Shown one piece after another: positions 5,699 through 60,675 of a stretch of DNA of 64,000 nucleotides. The stretch is taken from NCBI GenBank assembly GCA_034436295.1, contig DAOTVT010000071.1, positions 1,208-65,207 on the forward strand, written 5' to 3'. Source of the DNA: Anaerolineae bacterium (GTDB lineage: Bacteria; Chloroflexota; Anaerolineae; DTLA01). Position 1 is the first letter of the stretch. Each line of letters opens with the position of its first letter. The position numbers were made by a program, and so were the translations under genes. Under the pieces are notes generated by a model that did no database searches, was not told the origin of the DNA, and saw only the letters and a program-made list of their open reading frames with translations.

Positions 5699-6030
5699 AA
5701 GCAGGCGGGGACCCCCTCACCCTGGCCCTCTCGCCGCAAGGCGGGGCGAGGGGATTGGGCCCCTCACCCTAGCCCTCTCCCCGCGAGCGGGGCGAGGGGA
5801 AGTATTCCCAAGGTGCAACGCACTTCCGGAAGTGCGTTGCACCTTGGCGTGCCCCCGGCTTCGGCGGCTGTGGAAAGCCGCCCTACGTGTCTGCATCCAT
5901 TCTGCCTTCGCGTGGATTCGTGTTATTCGTGGATAGCGGTTAGCGAGCGTAGGGCAGGTTTCCATACCTGCCCCCGGCTTCGGCGGCTGTGGAAAGCCGC
6001 CCTACGTGTCTGCGGACAGCGGGTCTCGGA
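5690..6030. repeat. composite cluster of dispersed MITE-like repeats (families A,B,C,D)
   Basis: Family A is two units of CCCCTCACCCTNGCCCTCTCCCCGCNAGCGGGGCGAGGGGA. Family B is the perfect 40-bp palindrome CCAAGGTGCAACGCACTTCCGGAAGTGCGTTGCACCTTGG. Family C is two copies of CCCCCGGCTTCGGCGGCTGTGGAAAGCCGCCCTACGTGTCTGC. Family D is ATTCGTGTTATTCGTGGATAGCGGTTAGCGAGCGTAGGGCAGGTTTCCATACCTG. The same units recur elsewhere in the window. Confidence 0.85.
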
Positions 6031-37600: not shown

Positions 37601-38257
37601 CTAGGGCTTCTCCAACTCGCGGATTACATCGGCGGCGATCCAGCGCGCGGGTTTGGCGTCCATCTGGCCGATCTCGCGGGCGGTGTCCAGGGCGGCGCGG
37701 CGCAGGTTGGCGTTGCGCTTGCCCGCCTGCCGCAGCGCCCATGAGACCGCCTTCTTCACGAAGTTACGGCCATCGGTCGCGCCCGCCTTGATGACGGGGA
37801 ACAAGCGGATGAACGCCTCGTCGGGGGCCGCCTTGTCGTGCCAGGCCAGGCAGGCGATAAGGGCAAACGCGGCTCGGCGCACGAATTCCTCGTCGCGCCG
37901 CGCCCACTCGCCCACCTTCTGCCAGGCCAGGGGGCTTTTGTCAAACAGGTTCATGCACACCTGGTCGCACACATCCCACGAGTTGAAATCGGCGACCCAG
38001 GCTTCCATCTGGCTGTCGGTCAGTTGGGCGGGGTCGTCCACCATGGACGCGAGGATGCGGGCCTCGGGAATGCCCGTCTCCCACAGGGCCAGGGCGAGCG
38101 CATGATCCCTGCCGACAGTCTTGGCGATGCGGCGCATGTCGGGGACCGACACGCCCATGCGGGCGTCGGGCGTCATGCCGAAGCGGGCCATGCCCTCCAC
38201 GTTGTCGGGGTGGGCGTGGGACTGGAGCATGTGGAGCACGTCATGGACAGACGCCAT
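37601..38257 (-). CDS. DNA alkylation repair enzyme (AlkD-like HEAT-repeat glycosylase family)
   Basis: All-helical protein with the W/D-rich DNA-alkylation-repair signature (WVADFNSWDVCDQVC). Start placed at MASVHDVL. Confidence 0.7.
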   Translation of the reverse strand: MASVHDVLHMLQSHAHPDNVEGMARFGMTPDARMGVSVPDMRRIAKTVGRDHALALALWETGIPEARILASMVDDPAQLTDSQMEAWVADFNSWDVCDQVCMNLFDKSPLAWQKVGEWARRDEEFVRRAAFALIACLAWHDKAAPDEAFIRLFPVIKAGATDGRNFVKKAVSWALRQAGKRNANLRRAALDTAREIGQMDAKPARWIAADVIRELEKP

Positions 38258-38304
38258 GGTGGCCTCCTTCGGGGGCTGCGCGCGGGTCGCCCGCTGCGCC
38301 CCTC

Positions 38305-38664
38305 TCACGATTGCATCTCACGGAACAGGAACCACTGCCCCTTGCGGTCGTCCGGACCGCCAGGAGCGCGGTCGTAGTACAGGTCAAAGATGCGGCCCGC
38401 GTCGGTGCGCACGCGGAAGTAGAATCGGCCCACGCCCCAGGAGCCTCGCGCCGTGGCGGTGGCTGCGTGGCGCGGGCTCATGTTGCGGGCCATGCGTCCG
38501 CGGCGGGTGTAGTCGTGCCAGGCGGCGAGTTCCTCCGCGACGCGGTAGGATTCGCCGCGCCACACGAACCCTCTGGGGCAGTCGGGTTTCTTCTCTAGCG
38601 CGGGCGGCTCGTCAAAGACGACTTCTATCGGTTCGCCGATGAACCGCAGCGGTTTGACATCCAT
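38305..38664 (-). CDS. conserved hypothetical protein
   Basis: 120 aa; no assignable domain; coding periodicity and conservation-like composition. Confidence 0.5.
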   Translation of the reverse strand: MDVKPLRFIGEPIEVVFDEPPALEKKPDCPRGFVWRGESYRVAEELAAWHDYTRRGRMARNMSPRHAATATARGSWGVGRFYFRVRTDAGRIFDLYYDRAPGGPDDRKGQWFLFREMQS

Positions 38665-38754
38665 AAGCGCCTCACCGCCAAAGGGCACGCGCTCGGGCGC
38701 GGGTGCAGGTCACAGCAGGCTGCGGCCTTGTAGGCGCGGCGGGGCTGGCTGCGC

Positions 38755-39306
38755 TCACGCCTCGGCGACCACCGCGTTCATCTTCTCGTAGCACTCGCCG
38801 CAGATGCCGTGGGAAATGGCCGGCAGGCTGCGTCGTTGGAAAAGCCGCAGCCGTTGGATGGCTTCCTCTACCTCCACCCATTCGCCGCCCACGAAGAACT
38901 TCTTGCACCAGCCGCATGAGCGCAGCAATTCGTCGGACCGGTCGGCCTGGGGGTCTAGCAACAAAGGCGCTGGCCGCTCCTGTTCCAGGAGCGTGCGGGT
39001 GCGGAACTCCACCGCGCCGCCTTTCTGGCCGACGATGATCATCTCCAGAAACCGCCGTCGCCAGGGGGCGTCGCAGCGGAAGGTGAATTGGATGACGCGG
39101 CCCGCACGGGCCTTTTGCAAGAGCAGCCGATAGATTTCCTGCGTGGACAGGTCCGTGATGAAGTCCCAAAGTGGGCGATGGAGAACCTGTTCGGAAACGA
39201 CGCTCTCCCCGCCATTGGCTGTGGCGAACTGGTCCCAGTCTTCGCTCACGAAGACAATCTCGTCGTTCTCGTTGACCCTGTAGACGAGGTCTGGCGTTTC
39301 GGACAT
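38755..39306 (-). CDS. PAS-like sensor protein with C-terminal CxxC...SHGICxxC zinc-ribbon-like module
   Basis: GGGGAGGGG RBS; N-terminal PAS-like fold; C-terminus CGWCKK...EWVEVEEA...SHGICGEC shares its motif with the 44849..45484 product. Confidence 0.6.
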   Translation of the reverse strand: MSETPDLVYRVNENDEIVFVSEDWDQFATANGGESVVSEQVLHRPLWDFITDLSTQEIYRLLLQKARAGRVIQFTFRCDAPWRRRFLEMIIVGQKGGAVEFRTRTLLEQERPAPLLLDPQADRSDELLRSCGWCKKFFVGGEWVEVEEAIQRLRLFQRRSLPAISHGICGECYEKMNAVVAEA

Positions 39307-39514
39307 TGTCCCCTCCCCAAATGGAAATGCGCCACGGCCGGGCGGAAACGCATGACCATACCGCGTGGCTAGCATGTGCATTATACGTGTCGCCGACGCC
39401 CCCGGCAAGAAGGCTGGCCGCAAGGTTCGGGTTCGTCTTGCATCGGCGACGCGAGGTGCGACGCACCTTCCACAGTGCGCCGCACCTATCACGCGCACAG
39501 CGCCAGAGCGCCCG

Positions 39515-40159
39515 CTACCGCAGTTGTTTCCACACTTCCTGGACGAACAGGGGTTCGGGGTAGGCGCCCTCCACCGCGATGGTCTCGTTGATGACGGAGC
39601 GCGGCACGCCCTGCACCTGGTACTTGATGGCCAGGTCGGGGAACTCCATCGCCTCCACCATGTCGGCGCGGACGCGGTCGCTCTCCAGCGCCATCTGGAA
39701 CGCGAGCAGCACGGCTCGCGGGCAGTACGGTCAGGTGGGGGTTACGAACACCTGGATGTGCAGGTCTTGCTTCAGTTCCGCCAGGGCCTTCTTGGTGGCG
39801 TCCTTCAGCCCGCTCTCGCGCCGCGATACCATCATGATGCTTTCCACCAGCGACGAGAACTCGTACCCCGACGGGATGCCGTAGAAGCGGATGCCGTAGT
39901 CCTTCTCGCCGATGACCGCGATGGCGGGGATTCGCGCGATGTTGTACGGCGCGATCTTGTCCTTGTCGGCGACGAAGTCGTACACCTCAGCGGTGATCTT
40001 GTCCGAGAGTTCGGCCAGTTCCTCCACGATCTCGCGGGTTTCCTTGCAGAAGTCGCATTCAAAGTCCTGGGTTACCATGATGAGTTTCACGGGATGTACC
40101 AGTTTGGCCGCGAACTCCTTTTGCAGGTACTCGCGGTCTTTGGGTTGAATCATCGGCAT
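39515..40159 (-). CDS. thioredoxin-fold (glutaredoxin-like, two-domain) candidate selenoprotein with in-frame UGA at 39731..39733
   Basis: Track ORFs 39731..40159 and 39515..39712 are in the same frame, separated only by TGA. Reading through gives ...HIQVFVTPT-U-PYCPRAVLLA..., i.e. UxxC at the CxxC position of the second Trx-like half. The first half has CDFC. GAGGAGGG RBS sits before the ATG at 40159. A 7-bp hairpin (CGCGAGC-CGUGCU-GCUCGCG) lies 10 nt downstream of the UGA. Confidence 0.6.
39701..39720 (-). promoter_or_regulatory. candidate bacterial SECIS hairpin
   Basis: Perfect 7-bp stem with a 6-nt loop starting 10 nt 3' of the in-frame UGA. Confidence 0.35.
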
Positions 40160-40238: not shown

Positions 40239-40652
40239 TCATTTGGTCGCGATGCTAATCTTGCGCGGCTTGAGTTCCGGCGCCTTGGGCAGGGTGATCT
40301 TCAGGATGCCGTCCTCGTAGTGGGCCTCAATGTTCTGGGCGTCCACCTCCATGGGGATTTGGATGACACGGCGGTAGGTGCCGCTGGTGCGTTCGCAGCA
40401 CAGGTAGTCGGCCTCCTCGGGATACGCCTTGCGCTCGGCGCGCAGGGTGAGGGTGTCGCCCTCCAGCGTAACGTCAATGGAGTCGCGGTCCACGCCGGGG
40501 AGGTCCGCGTAGATGACCAGTCGGTCGCCCAGGTCAAAGATGTCCACCGGCGGCGCCCAGGTGCGCTCCTCGGGTTCTTCGCCCCAGGGTTCGCCGAACT
40601 CGCCCCAGGGGCCTCGCCGCGCCCATCGCGGTCGGAACAACGGGTACCACAT
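40239..40652 (-). CDS. Hsp20/alpha-crystallin family small heat shock protein
   Basis: Alpha-crystallin domain (PPVDIFDLGDRLVIYADLPGV...AHYEDGILKITLPK). Confidence 0.9.
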   Translation of the reverse strand: MWYPLFRPRWARRGPWGEFGEPWGEEPEERTWAPPVDIFDLGDRLVIYADLPGVDRDSIDVTLEGDTLTLRAERKAYPEEADYLCCERTSGTYRRVIQIPMEVDAQNIEAHYEDGILKITLPKAPELKPRKISIATK

Positions 40653-40882: not shown

Positions 40883-41629
40883 CTAGATCACGCACTCGGC
40901 TCGCTCCACCTCGCGCTCGTACAGTCGGATCAGCGCCTCGTAGTCCAGGAACTGCATTCTGTCCCTGATGGGCTCAAAGGCGCTGCGCCGCTTCTTGTCT
41001 TCAAACTCGCGCCTGCGCCTTGCGTCTGCGACGATCACCATCCGCACGTGAAAGTCCTGCAATTCGTAGAACTTGAGCATGGCATTCTGCATGTCCGTGG
41101 AATGCTCCACCTCAAAGAGGCTGTGCGGCATCTGTCGCGAATTGAGCCAGACAACATCTATCGTCTCGCAGTAGTGCATCAGGTGATCGTAGGTAAACCG
41201 CGGGAGCGTTTGGAGCGTCGGCACTTCTCCGAGGCGCTTGTTGAGGAACGGCTTGTTCCTGTCCTGCTGCGGGATGTACGTGCCCAGGTTGCGGAGATTG
41301 CCGATGGTGGCGAGGATTCCCTGGTAGTAGGCGTGGCCCTGCTCATCGGGTGCGATTTCCCTGGCCTTCCCGTACTCCGTCAGGCCCAGTCTCTGCTGGT
41401 ACGCGCGAAGCGCCCAGAGACCCGGGCGCACCTTGAAGATCTCGGGGCGGGTCTGAACAATGCGGCGGATGGAGGCGAAGGGGGTCTTTGTGCCCCAGAC
41501 GCACCCTTCCAATTTCATAACCTCTCGGTACAACTGCTCCAGGGTGGCCTGTCCGCCAAGCCGCTCCAGCGCGAGGATCACGGCCTCGTATTGCTTCATG
41601 CTCTCATCCCCGTGGTGTTCTGCCATCAT
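40883..41629 (-). CDS. hypothetical protein with N-terminal winged-helix and C-terminal PD-(D/E)XK-like (restriction-endonuclease-like) region
   Basis: wHTH-like N-terminus (YEAVILALERLGGQATLEQLYREV) and C-terminal EVEHS...K motif; flanked on both sides by dispersed repeats; start uncertain. Confidence 0.45.
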   Translation of the reverse strand: MMAEHHGDESMKQYEAVILALERLGGQATLEQLYREVMKLEGCVWGTKTPFASIRRIVQTRPEIFKVRPGLWALRAYQQRLGLTEYGKAREIAPDEQGHAYYQGILATIGNLRNLGTYIPQQDRNKPFLNKRLGEVPTLQTLPRFTYDHLMHYCETIDVVWLNSRQMPHSLFEVEHSTDMQNAMLKFYELQDFHVRMVIVADARRRREFEDKKRRSAFEPIRDRMQFLDYEALIRLYEREVERAECVI

Positions 41630-41659
41630 TATACACCCGCCCCGCCTGTTGTCCAAGCC

Positions 41660-42065
41660 CCCGCCGCGTATGGATTCGGTTCCGCCTCGTGTTGGCGTGC
41701 CCCCTGGCTTCGGCGGCTACGGAAAGCCGCCCCACGTGTCTACTGTAACCGCGAATCCACGCGAATCCACGCGAATGGAGAACAGCCCCTATCCTCCATT
41801 CGTGTGAATTCGTGTTATTCGTGGATAGCGTTTAGCGAGCGTGGGGCGGGTTCCCATACGTGCCCCCTTCGTCCGGCGGCTATGGAGAGCCGCCCTACGT
41901 GTCTACTGTAACCGCGAATCCACGCGAATCCACGCGAATGGAGAACAGCCCCTATTCGTGTGAATTCGTGTTATTCGTGGATAGCGTTTAGCGAGCGTGG
42001 GGCGGGTTCCCATACGTGCCCCCTTCGTCCGGCGGCTACGGAAAGCCGCCCTACGTGTTTGGGTC
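41660..42065. repeat. tandemly duplicated composite repeat (families E, C, D; two ~185-bp copies)
   Basis: CCCCCTGGCTTCGGCGGCTACGGAAAGCCGCCCCACGTGTCTACTGTAACCGCGAATCCACGCGAATCCACGCGAATGGAGAACAGCCCCTAT...ATTCGTGTTATTCGTGGATAGCGTTTAGCGAGCGTGGGGCGGGTTCCCATACGTGCC is repeated twice. Confidence 0.85.
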
Positions 42066-42132
42066 AAGCCCGCTTGACACGCCGCCCCGCCGCCCGTACA
42101 ATGCCGGCGAAGAATCCCGTCGGAGAGGCGCA

Positions 42133-42945
42133 GTGAAATCCCCGCGAACGCATATCCTCACCGTGGCGGCGTGGCTGGCGCTGGGCGCGGCCCTGGCGCC
42201 CTGGGTCGGCCCCTTCGGCCGAACGATGCAGGGCGCGCTCGGCAAGGTCTCGTGGGACTTCACCCTGTGGGCCACGCCGGTGTGGGCGCTGGCGGTGGCG
42301 GCGTGCGCGGCGCTGGGCACCCATGAGGTCATCGCGGCCCACCCCAAGGCGCGCCGCGGCGAGTTGAGCCACACCGCCCACTACTGGCCCACCCCTGCCC
42401 TGGTGGCGGCTGCTGCGGTCGTCCATGCGGCGCGGCTGCGGTCGGGGGCGGCTGTGGAGGGGCTGGCCGTCGGCGTCGGCGCGGCCGTGGCCGGCGTCCT
42501 GTGGCTGGAGTGGGCCACGGTGGACGCCGCCGAGCGGCCTTATGCCCGCGCGCGCTGGGCGCTGAACGTGGCCGACTACGCGGCGGCACTGGCGGCGTTC
42601 ACGGCGGCGCTCACCGGCAACCCGACGCCCGCGCAGGCCGGCGCGTTGTGCGGGGTGGCGGCGGGACTCGGGACGCTGGACCTGCTGCGACTGCCCGACC
42701 GCACGCCCGACTCGGTGGCTCTCTACGCGCCCCTCGTGGGGGCCATCGTTGGGGGCGGGGCGAGTCGGATGGCGCAAGGGGGGCTTTCCCCGACGGGCGC
42801 GGCGCTCATCTTGCTCCTCGTGGCCTATGCGCTCACGGGCATCCTCCAGCACCACCTTCGCCAGCAGTTGACATGGCGGGTGCGGCTGGAGTACTTCGGG
42901 CTTCTCGTGCTGGGGACGCTGGCGCTGCTGCGCTGGGTGGCGTGA
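42133..42945 (+). CDS. hypothetical polytopic membrane protein
   Basis: ~270 aa, Ala/Leu-rich with ~8 predicted TM segments; GTG start inferred. Confidence 0.5.
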   Translation: MKSPRTHILTVAAWLALGAALAPWVGPFGRTMQGALGKVSWDFTLWATPVWALAVAACAALGTHEVIAAHPKARRGELSHTAHYWPTPALVAAAAVVHAARLRSGAAVEGLAVGVGAAVAGVLWLEWATVDAAERPYARARWALNVADYAAALAAFTAALTGNPTPAQAGALCGVAAGLGTLDLLRLPDRTPDSVALYAPLVGAIVGGGASRMAQGGLSPTGAALILLLVAYALTGILQHHLRQQLTWRVRLEYFGLLVLGTLALLRWVA

Positions 42946-42951
42946 ACGGCG

Positions 42952-43983
42952 CTACGGCAACCGCCGCGCCGCCCCGATGTTGGCGCGCAGAAACGGCTCC
43001 TCGGCGCGCAGGTCGCCGTAGCACACCTCGGCGGCGGCCTTGCACCCGCCCTGGCATGTGTCGCGCAGGGGGCACGGCTGGCAGAACGCCGGAGTCGCCG
43101 CCGCGAAGGCTGCCATCGCCTCGCCGCCGATGATGTCCGCGAAAGGGCGCTCCCACACATTACCCAGCACCGTCGCGCTGTGGTTGCACGGGCGGACGTG
43201 GCCGGCGCGGTCCAGGGTGTAGTAGGCGCGCTCCGTGCCGGCAGCGCAGAAGCCGAAGTTCAGGTGGGGATAGGCATCCAGGGCCACCAGGCACGGCTGG
43301 ATGGGGATGGAGACCGCCACCGAGAGGCCCAATTCGGCGGCCAGGGCATCGGCGACGGCGAGGGCATCCCGCACCTGCTCCAGCGTGGGGAGCAGGTCCA
43401 GGTGGGCCGCGCCGCGCCCGCCTGGGTTGAAGCGGTTGAACTGCACGCCCCGCGCGCCAAAGGCGAAAGCCAGCCGTAGGGTATCGCGCAGGTCGGCGAT
43501 GTTGAGGCGGGTGGCAACGAAGGCGACGGCGGCGGCGCCGCGATGGGCGCGGATGTGGGCCAGAGCGGCCAGCGCGGCGTCAAAAGCGCCCGCAGCGCCG
43601 CACAGGGCGTCGTGCGTCTCGCGGCGATGGCTGAGCAGGGGCACGGCGAACAGGCTCACGCCGCGCTGGATGAGTTCGGCGGCGCGGGCGTCCGTCAGGC
43701 GGTGGCCGTTGGTGATGACGTTGACGCGCACGCCCCGCCGCGCAAGGAAGCCCACCGTTTCTTCCAGGTCCTCGCACAGGAGCGGCTCGCCGCCCGTGAG
43801 GGTTACGTGGCCGCAGTCCACCTGGGCCAGCACATGGGCCAGGAGCGCGGTCGCGTCGGGTTGGGGTCGAGCGGGAGCGGGCCGCGCGCCTGGATGCCGC
43901 CACGGGTTGTAGCAATACAGGCACGCATGGTCGCAGTCCTGGGTCATTTCCAGGATAAGGGTCTGAAGGCGGGGTCTGCCCAT
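42952..43983 (-). CDS. radical SAM/SPASM-domain maturase
   Basis: N-terminal CDHACLYCYNPW (CxxxCxxC) radical-SAM cluster motif. C-terminal auxiliary cluster cysteines (CAAGTERAYY...PCNH...CQPCPLRDTCQGGCKAAA) typical of the SPASM/twitch domain. Confidence 0.85.
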   Translation of the reverse strand: MGRPRLQTLILEMTQDCDHACLYCYNPWRHPGARPAPARPQPDATALLAHVLAQVDCGHVTLTGGEPLLCEDLEETVGFLARRGVRVNVITNGHRLTDARAAELIQRGVSLFAVPLLSHRRETHDALCGAAGAFDAALAALAHIRAHRGAAAVAFVATRLNIADLRDTLRLAFAFGARGVQFNRFNPGGRGAAHLDLLPTLEQVRDALAVADALAAELGLSVAVSIPIQPCLVALDAYPHLNFGFCAAGTERAYYTLDRAGHVRPCNHSATVLGNVWERPFADIIGGEAMAAFAAATPAFCQPCPLRDTCQGGCKAAAEVCYGDLRAEEPFLRANIGAARRLP

Positions 43984-43988
43984 GCGCG

Positions 43989-44633
43989 CTACTTCTTGCC
44001 CAGCAGAATGTCCACCAGCAGGCTCGCCGCATCTACGGCTTCGGGCGGGATGTCCAGTTGGAGTTCTTGCAGCGGGGGGTACTGGCCGCTTTCGCCCGCA
44101 CTCTGGCGCAGGGCTTCAATGAGCGCCTTCTCGTCCTCGTCGGTCAGCGACAGGATGGCCATGTCGCGCTGGATGGAGGTCTGGGCCAGGGCGACGGTGG
44201 CGGGGTCAATGGCGCTGCGCTGGGCCATCTCGGCCAGGATGTCGGCCTGGTGGGCCAGGTCGCTGGCGCCCATGATGCGATACTGCGGGTAGGGCGCGGG
44301 GACGTAGCACGTGATGGGGGCGTTGGCGCGCCAGACGTGCTGGGCCGCTGCCTGGAAGGCCACGTGGATGTCCTCGGCCTGGGCCGCGCCGATAAGCCCC
44401 GCGCGCACCAGATTATCCAGCGCGGCCAGGTGGTCGGCGACGAGTTGATCGCGGGTTTTCTGGCCGCGATCCAGGTCCTTGGCGTCCTGGGCCAGGCGGT
44501 CCAGGCCGTACCAGGCGTCGCGGACGCGGTCCCAGTCGTCTTTCTGGGCGGCGGGCGGTCTGCACCGCGACAGCACAACCGATGCCAGGGCGATGCCCAG
44601 CCCCTCCAGGAATTTCCGTCGGTTCCACTGCAT
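43989..44633 (-). CDS. Tat-signal protein of unknown function, co-operonic with radical SAM/SPASM gene
   Basis: AAGGGGAGG RBS; N-terminus MQWNRRKFLEGLGIALASVVLS carries a twin-arginine motif; 214 aa mature helical protein; its stop is 5 nt upstream of the SPASM gene start. Confidence 0.6.
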   Translation of the reverse strand: MQWNRRKFLEGLGIALASVVLSRCRPPAAQKDDWDRVRDAWYGLDRLAQDAKDLDRGQKTRDQLVADHLAALDNLVRAGLIGAAQAEDIHVAFQAAAQHVWRANAPITCYVPAPYPQYRIMGASDLAHQADILAEMAQRSAIDPATVALAQTSIQRDMAILSLTDEDEKALIEALRQSAGESGQYPPLQELQLDIPPEAVDAASLLVDILLGKK

Positions 44634-44848: not shown

Positions 44849-45484
44849 TTGTCCATGGAACAAAACCAACTCCAGGTGAATGACTATGTCCGCACCGTTC
44901 TGGATGCCATTCCGGCGGCAGTGTTCGTCGTGGACAGGCGCGTGCAGATCTTGGATTGCAACGCGGCCGGTCTGGAAATGCTGGGCACGTCGGGGAAGGA
45001 CAGCCTTCCCAAACTCTGCGGGAACGCGTTGCAGTGCGTCCACGCGCTGGAAAGTGCGGGGGGATGCGGTACGAGTCCGTTCTGCGCCAACTGCGCCCTG
45101 CGCAATGCGGTCAGGGAAGCCATGGAGGGCGACCGCGTGATTCGGCGCAAGACCGAGATGCTGCTGGTGCGACAGGGCCAGCCGCAGGAGTTTCACCTGC
45201 TCATCAGCACGGCGCCGTTTGAGTACAAGGGGCGGCGGCTCGTCCTGGCGACGTTGGAGGACATCACCGAACTGGAAGCGTTGCGCCGCATTGTGCCCAT
45301 CTGCGCCAACTGCAAGCGCGTGCGCACCGATGAGGAGTACTGGGAGAGTGTGGAAGCCTACGTCGCCAAGCACTCCAACCTGGATTTCAGCCACGGCATT
45401 TGCCCCGACTGCGCCAGGATGCTGTATCCCGACCTGTTCCTCGGCGAGGACGATCGGCCGCCGGATCCTGCCCATTCGCAATAG
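44849..45484 (+). CDS. PAS-domain sensor protein with C-terminal CxxC...SHGICxxC zinc-ribbon-like module
   Basis: PAS fold (LDAIPAAVFVVDRRVQILDCNAA...) followed by ICANCKRVRTDEEYWESVEAYVAKHSNLDFSHGICPDCARML. Paralog of 38755..39306. Confidence 0.65.
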   Translation: MSMEQNQLQVNDYVRTVLDAIPAAVFVVDRRVQILDCNAAGLEMLGTSGKDSLPKLCGNALQCVHALESAGGCGTSPFCANCALRNAVREAMEGDRVIRRKTEMLLVRQGQPQEFHLLISTAPFEYKGRRLVLATLEDITELEALRRIVPICANCKRVRTDEEYWESVEAYVAKHSNLDFSHGICPDCARMLYPDLFLGEDDRPPDPAHSQ

Positions 45485-45514: not shown

Positions 45515-45870
45515 GAGGGCTGGCAGTAGGGCGGCTCTCCGTAGCCGCCGAAACCGGGGGCACGCCCAGGTGCGACGCACTTCCCAAAGTGCGTCGCACC
45601 TGGGCGCCAACACAAGACGGAGCCGAATCCTGCCGCCCCGTATGCTTTTGACAGCCGCCATAGCCGGGTGGCAGGTACGGAAACCTGCCCTACACTCGCT
45701 AACCGCTATCCACGAATAACACGAATCCACACGAATGGAGAATAGACCCCCAACGGTCTCCGAGGCCCGTTGTCCGCAGACACGTAGGGCGGCTCTCCGT
45801 AGCCGCCGGACGAAGGGGGCAGGTATGGAAACCTGCCCTACACTCTGCTGCCGGACTTGCGCCAATTTCC
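45515..45870. repeat. composite dispersed-repeat cluster (families C, B, E, D, C)
   Basis: GGGCGGCTCTCCGTAGCCGCC; palindrome CCAGGTGCGACGCACTTCCCAAAGTGCGTCGCACCTGG; ACACAAGACGGAGCCGAATCC; CGCTAACCGCTATCCACGAATAACACGAATCCACACGAATGG. Confidence 0.85.
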
Positions 45871-60624: not shown

Positions 60625-60675
60625 CCGTACATCCAAGGCGCGGCGCACTTCCGAAAAGTGCGTCGCATCTATGCT
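60625..60675. repeat. dispersed repeat family B (imperfect palindrome)
   Basis: GGCGCGGCGCACTTCCGAAAAGTGCGTCGCATC. Confidence 0.6.

Follow-up and report, generated by a model that had tools for sequence, protein, structure and literature searches.

The nearest described concept to the domain analysed here is HalOD2, a C-terminal output domain of unknown function that is linked to REC domains in a few halobacteria and in which two CxxC motifs, spaced by 20-25 residues and predicted to form a Zn finger, come after a helical N-terminal part (Galperin et al. 2018, PMC5847659). Like HalOD2, the module described below is a small C-terminal domain found attached to REC, with a helix followed by two CxxC motifs. 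It is nevertheless not HalOD2, as the spacing between its motifs is 29 residues, or 34-35 in a subtype that we refer to as A type, its second motif reads [ST]HGIC-x2-C, and it belongs to a very large bacterial family that is paired with all sensor types. Searching Pfam at E<=10 returned no HalOD2 match to the modules, provided that the Pfam copy used contains a HalOD2 model. In its placement the module resembles the HisKA/DHp, GGDEF, and MCP signalling domains, as it lies C-terminal to PAS, GAF, HAMP, REC, or transmembrane (TM) sensors and is joined to them by a predicted coiled-coil helix in fixed register. Unlike these domains, it is ~45 residues long and based on four cysteines (Cys4), it contains no recognisable catalytic or phospho-acceptor machinery, and it has no sequence or fold relation to any of them.

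Among structural Zn(Cys)4 sites and treble-clef or zinc-ribbon fingers, the module can be compared with the C-terminal site of Fur/PerR, the N-terminal ZBD of ClpX, and the GATA and RING fingers, as it has two CxxC pairs, a predicted knuckle with a beta-hairpin, and a second ligand pair predicted at the N-terminus of a helix. Two further small zinc/thiol domains of bacterial signalling proteins, ZAS, which acts by binding a partner, and CZB, which is found at the C-terminus of sensors, are conceptual analogues for partner-switch and redox-switch readings of the module alike. ZAS is an N-terminal helical anti-sigma domain with the motif H-x3-C-x2-C, and CZB forms a bundle of four helices that holds a His/Cys site, whereas the module carries H-x2-C-x2-C in a C-terminal beta/alpha mini-domain. 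The modules had no Pfam matches to ZAS (zf-HC2) or CZB, and ZAS was rejected as the identity of the module on the grounds of its motif, its C-terminal location, and the lack of a zf-HC2 match.

The window, by which we mean the whole 64-kb stretch of DNA that was analysed, contains two genes encoding such a module, whose products we call protein A and protein B. Their features are as follows.

38755..39306, minus strand: protein A gene, ATG start, 183 aa, encoding a PAS-fold domain and a divergent A-type Cys4 module
38977..39288, minus strand: PAS-fold sensor domain of protein A, residues ~7-110
38758..38940, minus strand: A-type C-terminal Cys4 module, residues ~123-183
38791..38916, minus strand: Cys core of the A module, C131-x2-C134 ... 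H166-G-I-C169-x2-C172
44849..45484, plus strand: protein B gene, TTG start, 211 aa, encoding a PAS domain, a short helix, and a canonical Cys4 module
44900..45277, plus strand: PAS domain of protein B, residues 18-143 (Pfam PAS_4 1.2e-9, PAS_8 2.7e-9, PAS_9 3.4e-7)
45017..45094, plus strand: second Cys cluster, inside the PAS domain of protein B, C57, C63, C73, C79, and C82 in the 211-aa numbering
45266..45439, plus strand: canonical module and short linker helix of protein B, residues 140-197
45302..45412, plus strand: Cys core of the B module, C-x2-C-x29-C-x2-C, 37 residues

Both open reading frames and their Cys motifs are present as they had first been described. The motif of protein A, CGWCKKFFVGGEWVEVEEAIQRLRLFQRRSLPAISHGICGEC (38791..38916, minus strand), and that of protein B, CANCKRVRTDEEYWESVEAYVAKHSNLDFSHGICPDC (45302..45412, plus strand), are exactly the two copies of the module pattern that the six-frame scan found in the 64-kb window, and in 200 shuffles a loose form of the pattern arose 0.01 times on average and the strict form 0 times. 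The 183-aa form of protein A is 100% identical to a database protein called by independent gene callers on four contigs, and its orthologs are likewise 183 aa; a longer ORF that begins with GTG and extends to 39498 is therefore probably not used as the start of protein A. The orthologs of protein B, which are 73-99% identical to it, are 209 aa long, and the true start of protein B is thus probably the ATG at 44855, giving 209 aa, rather than the TTG at 44849. A and B are small cytoplasmic PAS sensor proteins whose sole further domain is the Cys4 module. The first-pass annotation had stated that neither protein carries a transmitter, HTH, or enzymatic output, and indeed no output domain was detectable in A or B with Pfam or NCBIfam.

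The two proteins had also been described as paralogs. Aligning A with B by BLASTP paired their C-terminal 42 residues (33% identity, E 0.002) and nothing else, and comparison of the A-type and canonical module alignments by hhalign returned a probability of 98% and an E-value of 1.4e-13. An HMM built exclusively from canonical modules, with the A type left out, recovered protein A of the window (22.6 bits) together with all 108 A-type modules. The A type differs from the canonical form by an insertion of 5-6 residues after the central helix, and its first and last cysteines span 42-43 residues versus 37. These alignments indicate that the A and B modules are homologous and that the module of A is a divergent subtype; the description as paralogs thus applies to the module, whereas the remainders of the two proteins cannot be aligned by BLASTP and belong to separate families.

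The N-termini of both proteins had been proposed to be PAS-like sensors, which for B was borne out by sequence and for A by predicted structure. The N-terminus of B scored above the Pfam gathering thresholds (GA) of PAS_4 (38.8 bits, GA 23.1), PAS_8 (37.0, GA 21.8), and PAS_9 (30.9, GA 27), and it also matched TIGR00229 (4.2e-7, 30.1 bits, cut-off 22.9). With an HMM made from 264 canonical modules, protein B scored 104 bits, and in its AlphaFold model (pLDDT 81) the module runs in the order helix, beta-hairpin, helix, knuckle, and helix. Protein B is a canonical family member with a shortened helix. Its own full-length family comprises proteins of ~190-240 aa, with members in Anaerolineales, Deltaproteobacteria, and Desulfobulbaceae, in which the last four cysteines of the PAS-domain cluster (C61, C71, C77, and C80 in the 209-aa numbering) are invariant. 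This cluster may serve as a further site at which a metal or Fe-S is sensed.

The N-terminus of protein A matched only PAS_9 among the Pfam PAS models, and did so below threshold (E 0.14, 12.9 bits, GA 27), and a precomputed PAS match was present for two of 120 listed members of its family. Its predicted structure is a PAS fold, with a five-stranded antiparallel sheet flanked by helices, and the AlphaFold model of the whole protein has a pLDDT of 93.7 and a pTM of 0.85. Within the PAS-fold domain, an FRCDAP motif that includes Cys78 is invariant across the A family. In the same model, the C-terminal module is formed by a strand (123-131), a hairpin (137-144), a helix (146-152), a further strand (161-167), and a final helix (170-182). 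The A family, which is separate from that of B, is tightly conserved at ~183-190 aa and ranges over Anaerolineae, Bryobacteraceae, Acidobacteriota, Planctomycetota, and Gemmatimonadota (Gemmatimonadales); its named members are all labelled 'hypothetical', and almost none has a Pfam match. Protein A does not possess a long coiled-coil linker helix, and this, together with the pTM of its model, suggests that the module and the PAS domain make up one compact unit. Protein A may therefore work by direct domain coupling, and a mechanism in which a helix acts as a lever may not apply to it.

The canonical module is ~45 residues long, with the consensus P-I-C-x2-C-K-x-[IV]-R-x-D-x-G-x-W-x3-E-x-Y-x8-F-[ST]-H-G-[IL]-C-P-x-C-x4-Y-P. 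Numbered from the first cysteine, the N-terminal part reads L(-7) x G(-5) [LI][LI] P(-2) I(-1) C1 x x C4 K5, continues as x [IV]7 R8 x D10 x G12 x W14 x x x E18 x Y20, and ends as F29 [ST]30 H31 G32 [IL]33 C34 P35 x C37 ... Y42 P43. In 93 sequences filtered to <70% identity, these consensus positions are conserved at 80-100%. The four cysteines and one histidine are invariant, and conservation extends beyond them to K5, R8, D10, W14, E18, Y20, F29, S30, H31, G32, P35, Y42, and P43. The core is mildly acidic, with a mean net charge of -1.6, and the pattern of conservation is unchanged whatever sensor lies upstream.

The predicted topology begins with a strand or helix that leads into the first CxxC knuckle and a beta-hairpin (K-x-I-R / G-x-W), and it proceeds through a helix (W...E.Y) to a strand ending in [ST]HG and a second C-x2-C that opens a C-terminal helix. 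In the AlphaFold models, which we call confident, Cys1 and Cys2 lie on the knuckle after the strand, and Cys3 and Cys4 lie at the start of the C-terminal helix. As the second ligand pair is located at the start of this helix, the predicted arrangement appears closer to a treble clef than to a textbook zinc ribbon. The term zinc-ribbon-like, used in the first-pass annotation, fits only loosely: a classical ribbon has two zinc knuckles, each on a beta-hairpin, that form a three-stranded sheet, whereas here the first pair is predicted on a knuckle with a hairpin and the second at a strand-to-helix junction, and no zinc-ribbon Pfam model scored above threshold for the modules. A module-only profile found no relative among PDB sequences, the best match (E 0.66) being a 'GICPDC' knuckle from the structural Zn(Cys)4 site of PerR, and Foldseek against the PDB gave no significant fold match, with RING, GATA (E about 7-9), and E7 as non-significant neighbours. 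The Cys pairs, being invariant, and the topology predicted for them lead us to infer that the four cysteines converge on one site and that the module binds a metal, most likely as Zn(Cys)4.

Although the first-pass annotation regarded the module as unusual, it is very common and has simply escaped annotation. Searching 1.84 billion representative proteins (50%-identity clusters) exhaustively with a module profile retrieved 26,424 representatives at E<=1e-3 and 20,166 at the stricter E<=1e-10; family size is taken from this search, as a word-indexed query with the module alone gave 11 short fragments, an apparent length bias. In a scan of one genome per species, at least 585 loci were confirmed, in Desulfobacterota, Spirochaetota, Bacteroidota, Nitrospirota, Nitrospinota, Verrucomicrobiota, Chloroflexota, Acidobacteriota, Gemmatimonadota, Ignavibacteriota, Zixibacteria, Cloacimonadota, Calditrichota, and others. 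The module is thus among the larger unannotated domain families. Neither Pfam (2025 copy) nor NCBIfam (2026) has a model covering it, and only scattered sub-threshold zinc-knuckle matches were obtained; a match to an already described Pfam domain, which the first-pass annotation had named as the outcome that would refute it, was looked for and not found. DUF7558 was rejected as the identity of the module, as its best score was 21.5 bits against a gathering threshold of 27, in one tandem-module protein and over the linker and first knuckle only, and it matched two of 12 modules, at E>=0.011. DUF3039, zf-C4pol, and zf-FLZ were likewise rejected, their matches being sub-threshold, partial, and inconsistent. 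Public names of carrier proteins are 'hypothetical', 'PAS domain-containing', or 'PAC domain-containing'. No description of the module was found in the literature, including an archaeal two-component census and the signalling-helix paper, from whose text the words 'zinc', 'cysteine', and 'ribbon' are absent (Anantharaman et al. 2006, PMC1592074), although a prior mention elsewhere is possible; searching for literal motif strings (HGICP, SHGIC, and similar) yielded only noise. The module therefore appears to be an undescribed domain family within known frameworks, those of small Cys4 metal fingers and of modular bacterial signalling proteins.

Within its carriers the module is strictly C-terminal. 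A median of 15 residues separates its end from the C-terminus of the protein, and this distance is at most 30 residues in 92% of copies. Partner domains were tabulated in two independent samples. The first, 92 high-scoring carriers, contained PAS (48), REC (17), GAF (5), and HAMP (4), plus MASE6, dCache, and TPR. The second, 73 carriers from species-representative genomes, contained REC and PAS (12 each), Reg_prop+Y_Y_Y (5), and HAMP (4), with VUPS, Tll0287-like, MASE3, MASE11, HisKA_7TM, SBP_bac_3, CHASE, sCache, dCache, GAF, and TPR as further partners. HisKA, HATPase, GGDEF, EAL, and HTH domains were not among the 25 most frequent families of either sample, on which the absence of outputs was judged, and rare carriers may combine the module with another output. 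These partners make up the usual set of input and receiver modules found upstream of histidine-kinase, GGDEF, or MCP transmitters. In alignments, the REC domains fused to the module retain the acidic pocket, the phospho-acceptor Asp, and the conserved Lys. Minimal carriers also exist, composed solely of TM helices followed by the helix and module, as do proteins with a tandem [TM+module]x2 arrangement. The module was thus found to occupy the C-terminal slot behind input and receiver domains, where it replaces other outputs.

The segment that links the module to the upstream domain has a regular pattern of its own. In 226 non-redundant proteins, hydrophobic residues occupy positions -24, -21, -17, -14, -10, -7, and -3 from Cys1, Pro and Gly are nearly absent between -28 and -6, where no position exceeds 9%, and Fourier analysis gives a peak at 3.5 residues. 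Where a PAS domain precedes the linker, its 'DIT.RK' end typically falls at ~-35 from Cys1. The linker thus carries the heptad of a signalling-helix coiled coil, in fixed register with the module, and carriers would accordingly be expected to dimerise as a parallel coiled coil.

Taken together, we propose that the module is a metal-stabilised output head, likely Zn(Cys)4, on a dimeric signalling helix, and that it binds a common partner whose gene lies elsewhere in the genome, a proposal to which we give about an even chance of being correct. The argument for an output role is one of domain architecture and draws on the C-terminal position, the lack of an alternative output, the fusions to receiver domains, and the fixed heptad register. 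In the proposed mechanism, a signal would reach the upstream domain, either as a ligand or redox state at a PAS, GAF, or Cache domain or as phosphorylation of REC, and would shift or rotate the helix. As a parallel coiled coil in fixed register would place two heads side by side, this movement could alter how the two heads are presented at the end of the dimer, and thereby switch the binding of this one common cellular partner. The mini-domain would be held together by a metal ion, most likely Zn, and the conserved polar surface formed by K5, R8, D10, E18, S30, and H31 would engage a target common to all paralogs. The partner-switch step specifically is more doubtful than not. A common protein or ligand target is favoured over DNA by the acidic charge, the lack of diversification among paralogs, and the many membrane-anchored carriers, and the conservation of the module, which is the same behind different sensors, is more in keeping with a single shared target than with DNA sites that have diversified. 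The earlier suggestion of an uncharacterised output or protein-interaction domain is supported, as neither Pfam nor NCBIfam has a model for the module, the PDB yielded no relative, and the module fills the output slot. No homolog with a characterised function came to light, the role itself is one that we infer, and a head of ~45 residues might just as well serve for sensing or for stability.

Should the module be an output domain, a single signalling route would unite tens of thousands of proteins that currently go by the names 'PAS domain-containing', 'response regulator', or 'hypothetical'. This route would include response regulators that appear to consist of a receiver only, as well as membrane sensors with CHASE, Cache, MASE, or Reg_prop domains, and it would be concentrated in environmentally important and poorly studied phyla, namely Desulfobacterota, Spirochaetota, Bacteroidota, Nitrospirota, Chloroflexota, and Acidobacteriota. 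A further-reaching version, that the helix and Cys4 module together constitute an unrecognised major class of bacterial output, on a par with histidine-kinase, GGDEF/EAL, MCP, and HTH modules, through which thousands of sensors and response regulators in most non-model phyla would act on one common hub, either a protein or a small ligand bound by the dimer, and hence a new pathway, strikes us as rather doubtful. Naming the domain would bring an immediate gain in annotation. Once identified, its partner or ligand could turn out to be a new regulatory hub and account for the action of many 'output-less' sensors. Its small size, sharp definition, and strong conservation make the module easy to test.

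The alternative that survives best places the module on the input side, as a redox or metal sensor, which we consider unlikely. The module would then be an Hsp33/RsrA-type thiol/zinc switch or a rubredoxin-like iron site, and oxidation or metal loss would alter the protein, with the PAS or REC domains signalling onward. The invariance of the four cysteines and the histidine is in keeping with such a role, as is the second Cys4 cluster in the PAS domain of B, which would point to a protein built around thiol/metal chemistry. The canonical spacing C-x2-C-x29-C-x2-C equals that of rubredoxin, but the likeness is one of spacing alone: rubredoxin knuckles are C-x2-C-G and C-P-x-C-G around Fe, neither rubredoxin nor any other Pfam metal-sensor model matched the modules at E<=10, and rubredoxin was rejected as their identity. 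Many carriers come from anaerobes, yet others occur in Chitinophagaceae, Gemmatimonas, and Bryobacterales, which we take to be aerobic lineages. The gene for A lies on the same strand as, and just downstream of, those for a thioredoxin-fold candidate selenoprotein and Hsp20, but this stress-gene neighbourhood is not conserved elsewhere. Architecture also argues against a sensor, as the module always follows the signalling helix at the C-terminus, the position of a transmitter or output, and proteins composed of REC and the module, or of a periplasmic sensor, TM helices, and the module, would be left with no output.

That the module is a nucleic-acid-binding zinc finger, which would make its carriers transcriptional or RNA regulators, seems to us distinctly improbable. 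Small Cys4 fingers are often DNA or RNA binders, HalOD2 with its two CxxC motifs is a predicted nucleic-acid binder (PMC5847659), and the first knuckle is followed by conserved K5, K6, and R8. Against these basic residues stands an acidic core overall, and the putative recognition surface is near-identical over hundreds of paralogs from many phyla, unlike what would be expected for diversified target sites. GATA fingers do appear among the weak Foldseek neighbours noted above, but no significant similarity to any DNA-binding finger emerged from the PDB, Foldseek, and Pfam searches, and many carriers are integral membrane sensors (MASE, 7TM, CHASE, Cache, and Reg_prop).

A third alternative, which we judge highly unlikely, is that the module is a structural cap, either a stabilising or dimerising zinc clasp or a tag for localisation or proteolysis, with carriers signalling via hetero-oligomers formed by their PAS or REC domains. 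No catalytic features can be detected in this tiny module, its sole sequence echo in the PDB is the structural PerR site, and the model of protein A, with its high pTM and no long linker helix, suggests a compact unit with the PAS domain. A clasp would not, however, need surface-type polar residues (K5, R8, D10, E18, S30, and H31) to be conserved like ligands, and it is difficult to reconcile with proteins made up only of TM helices and the helix and module or of the tandem [TM+module]x2; the heptad register fixed to the module is, moreover, typical of functional outputs. Finally, covalent signalling, in which the His of F-S-H-G would be an HPt-like phospho-acceptor from REC or a kinase, or the module a minimal enzyme at the dimer interface, has very little likelihood. 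In its favour, the Ser/Thr before the invariant His is a superficial echo of the 'SHE' of the kinase H-box, the module resembles DHp in sitting on a predicted dimeric helix, and REC is a frequent partner. Against it stand the lack of similarity to HisKA or HPt models, the location of the His three residues before a putative metal ligand, such that it may itself be a ligand, and a size of forty-five residues, very small for catalysis, with no ATP-binding domain.

For the output head that we favour, gene neighbourhoods did not point to a partner: across 80 genomic loci there was no recurrent partner, and the commonest unrelated neighbour cluster occurred at four of the 80. Neighbourhoods of the A family were the same only in near-identical contigs and differed in four distant lineages, and those of the B family were variable, with no conserved neighbour. 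In the window, the genes for Hsp20, the thioredoxin-fold candidate selenoprotein, A, DUF6504, and a DNA-alkylation-repair protein follow one another on one strand, and the gene for B adjoins a radical-SAM gene. The observation in the first-pass annotation that the two copies flank a radical-SAM/selenoprotein region is positionally true, but as the context varies around A- and B-family members elsewhere, the arrangement is specific to this lineage and the flanking looks incidental; a functional link of A and B to the intervening radical-SAM/selenoprotein/repeat region was rejected for the same reason. A 34-nt palindrome near both genes was considered as a shared regulatory site and rejected, as this REP-like element is dispersed and further copies of it lie elsewhere in the window.

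An exhaustive profile search with the module, the ~45-residue C-terminal four-cysteine domain of these sensor proteins, returned top-scoring database matches (P0252-P0293) that carry two module copies per protein. In P0252 this arises from an internal tandem duplication of a polytopic membrane domain, helix and module, which shows that the unit formed by the module and its preceding coiled-coil helix duplicates along with its sensor.

Protein B (44849..45484, + strand) contains a second cysteine cluster, distinct from its C-terminal module:

45017..45094, + strand, inside the PAS domain: C57-x5-C63-x9-C73-x5-C79-x2-C82

The last four cysteines of this cluster (C63, C73, C79 and C82) are invariant in 57 members of the B family, the full-length relatives of protein B, and the cluster may form a sensing site, of Zn or Fe-S type, inserted into the core of the PAS domain.

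Gene A, which encodes the other PAS-fold protein (38755..39306, - strand), lies among the following genes:

40239..40652, - strand, Hsp20 gene
39515..40159, - strand, thioredoxin-fold ORF interrupted by one in-frame TGA (39731..39733)
38305..38688, - strand, DUF6504 gene, adjoining gene A on its downstream side
37601..38308, - strand, DNA_alkylation (PF08713) repair-like gene

The thioredoxin-fold ORF, directly upstream of A and downstream of the Hsp20 gene, is called as two genes by gene callers, with Thioredoxin_3 matches on them. Its TGA sits exactly within the redox motif (...VFVTPT-TGA-PYCPRAV) and, read as U, gives T-U-P-Y-C-P, a CPYC motif in which the first Cys position is replaced, making this codon a strong selenocysteine candidate. 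The 3' end of the DUF6504 gene overlaps the start of the DNA_alkylation gene by 4 nt, suggesting that hsp20, trx(Sec), A, DUF6504 and alkylation repair, which follow in this order on one strand, are co-transcribed. This neighbourhood is not kept in distant A-family members.

Four genes separate A from B, with annotations taken from identical contigs:

40883..41656, - strand, NmeDI_C-like (restriction-endonuclease-like) protein
42016..42945, + strand, DUF5656 membrane protein
42952..43983, - strand, radical-SAM enzyme, rich in cysteine over its C-terminal half
43989..44633, - strand, 214-aa protein without Pfam match

A 34-nt element, composed of AGGTGCGACGCACYT twice in inverted orientation, has a copy upstream of gene A, another downstream of gene B and further ones elsewhere:

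39454..39487; 45568..45601; ~5811..5844; ~60636..60670, copies of the palindromic element

Allowing ≤2 mismatches, 13 matches were found versus 0.5 expected, and the element is a dispersed REP-like palindromic repeat. It is not specific to the two genes, and its reading as a regulatory site shared by them was rejected, as copies occur elsewhere in the window. Longer intergenic repeats are also present:

41696..42058 and 45653..45845, tandem or dispersed repeats of ~100-160 nt (families D1, D2 and D4)

Copies of these are 82-96% identical to one another, and they give rise to spurious look-alike ORFs, such as '...SCYSWIAFSERGAGSHTCPLRPAA...'.
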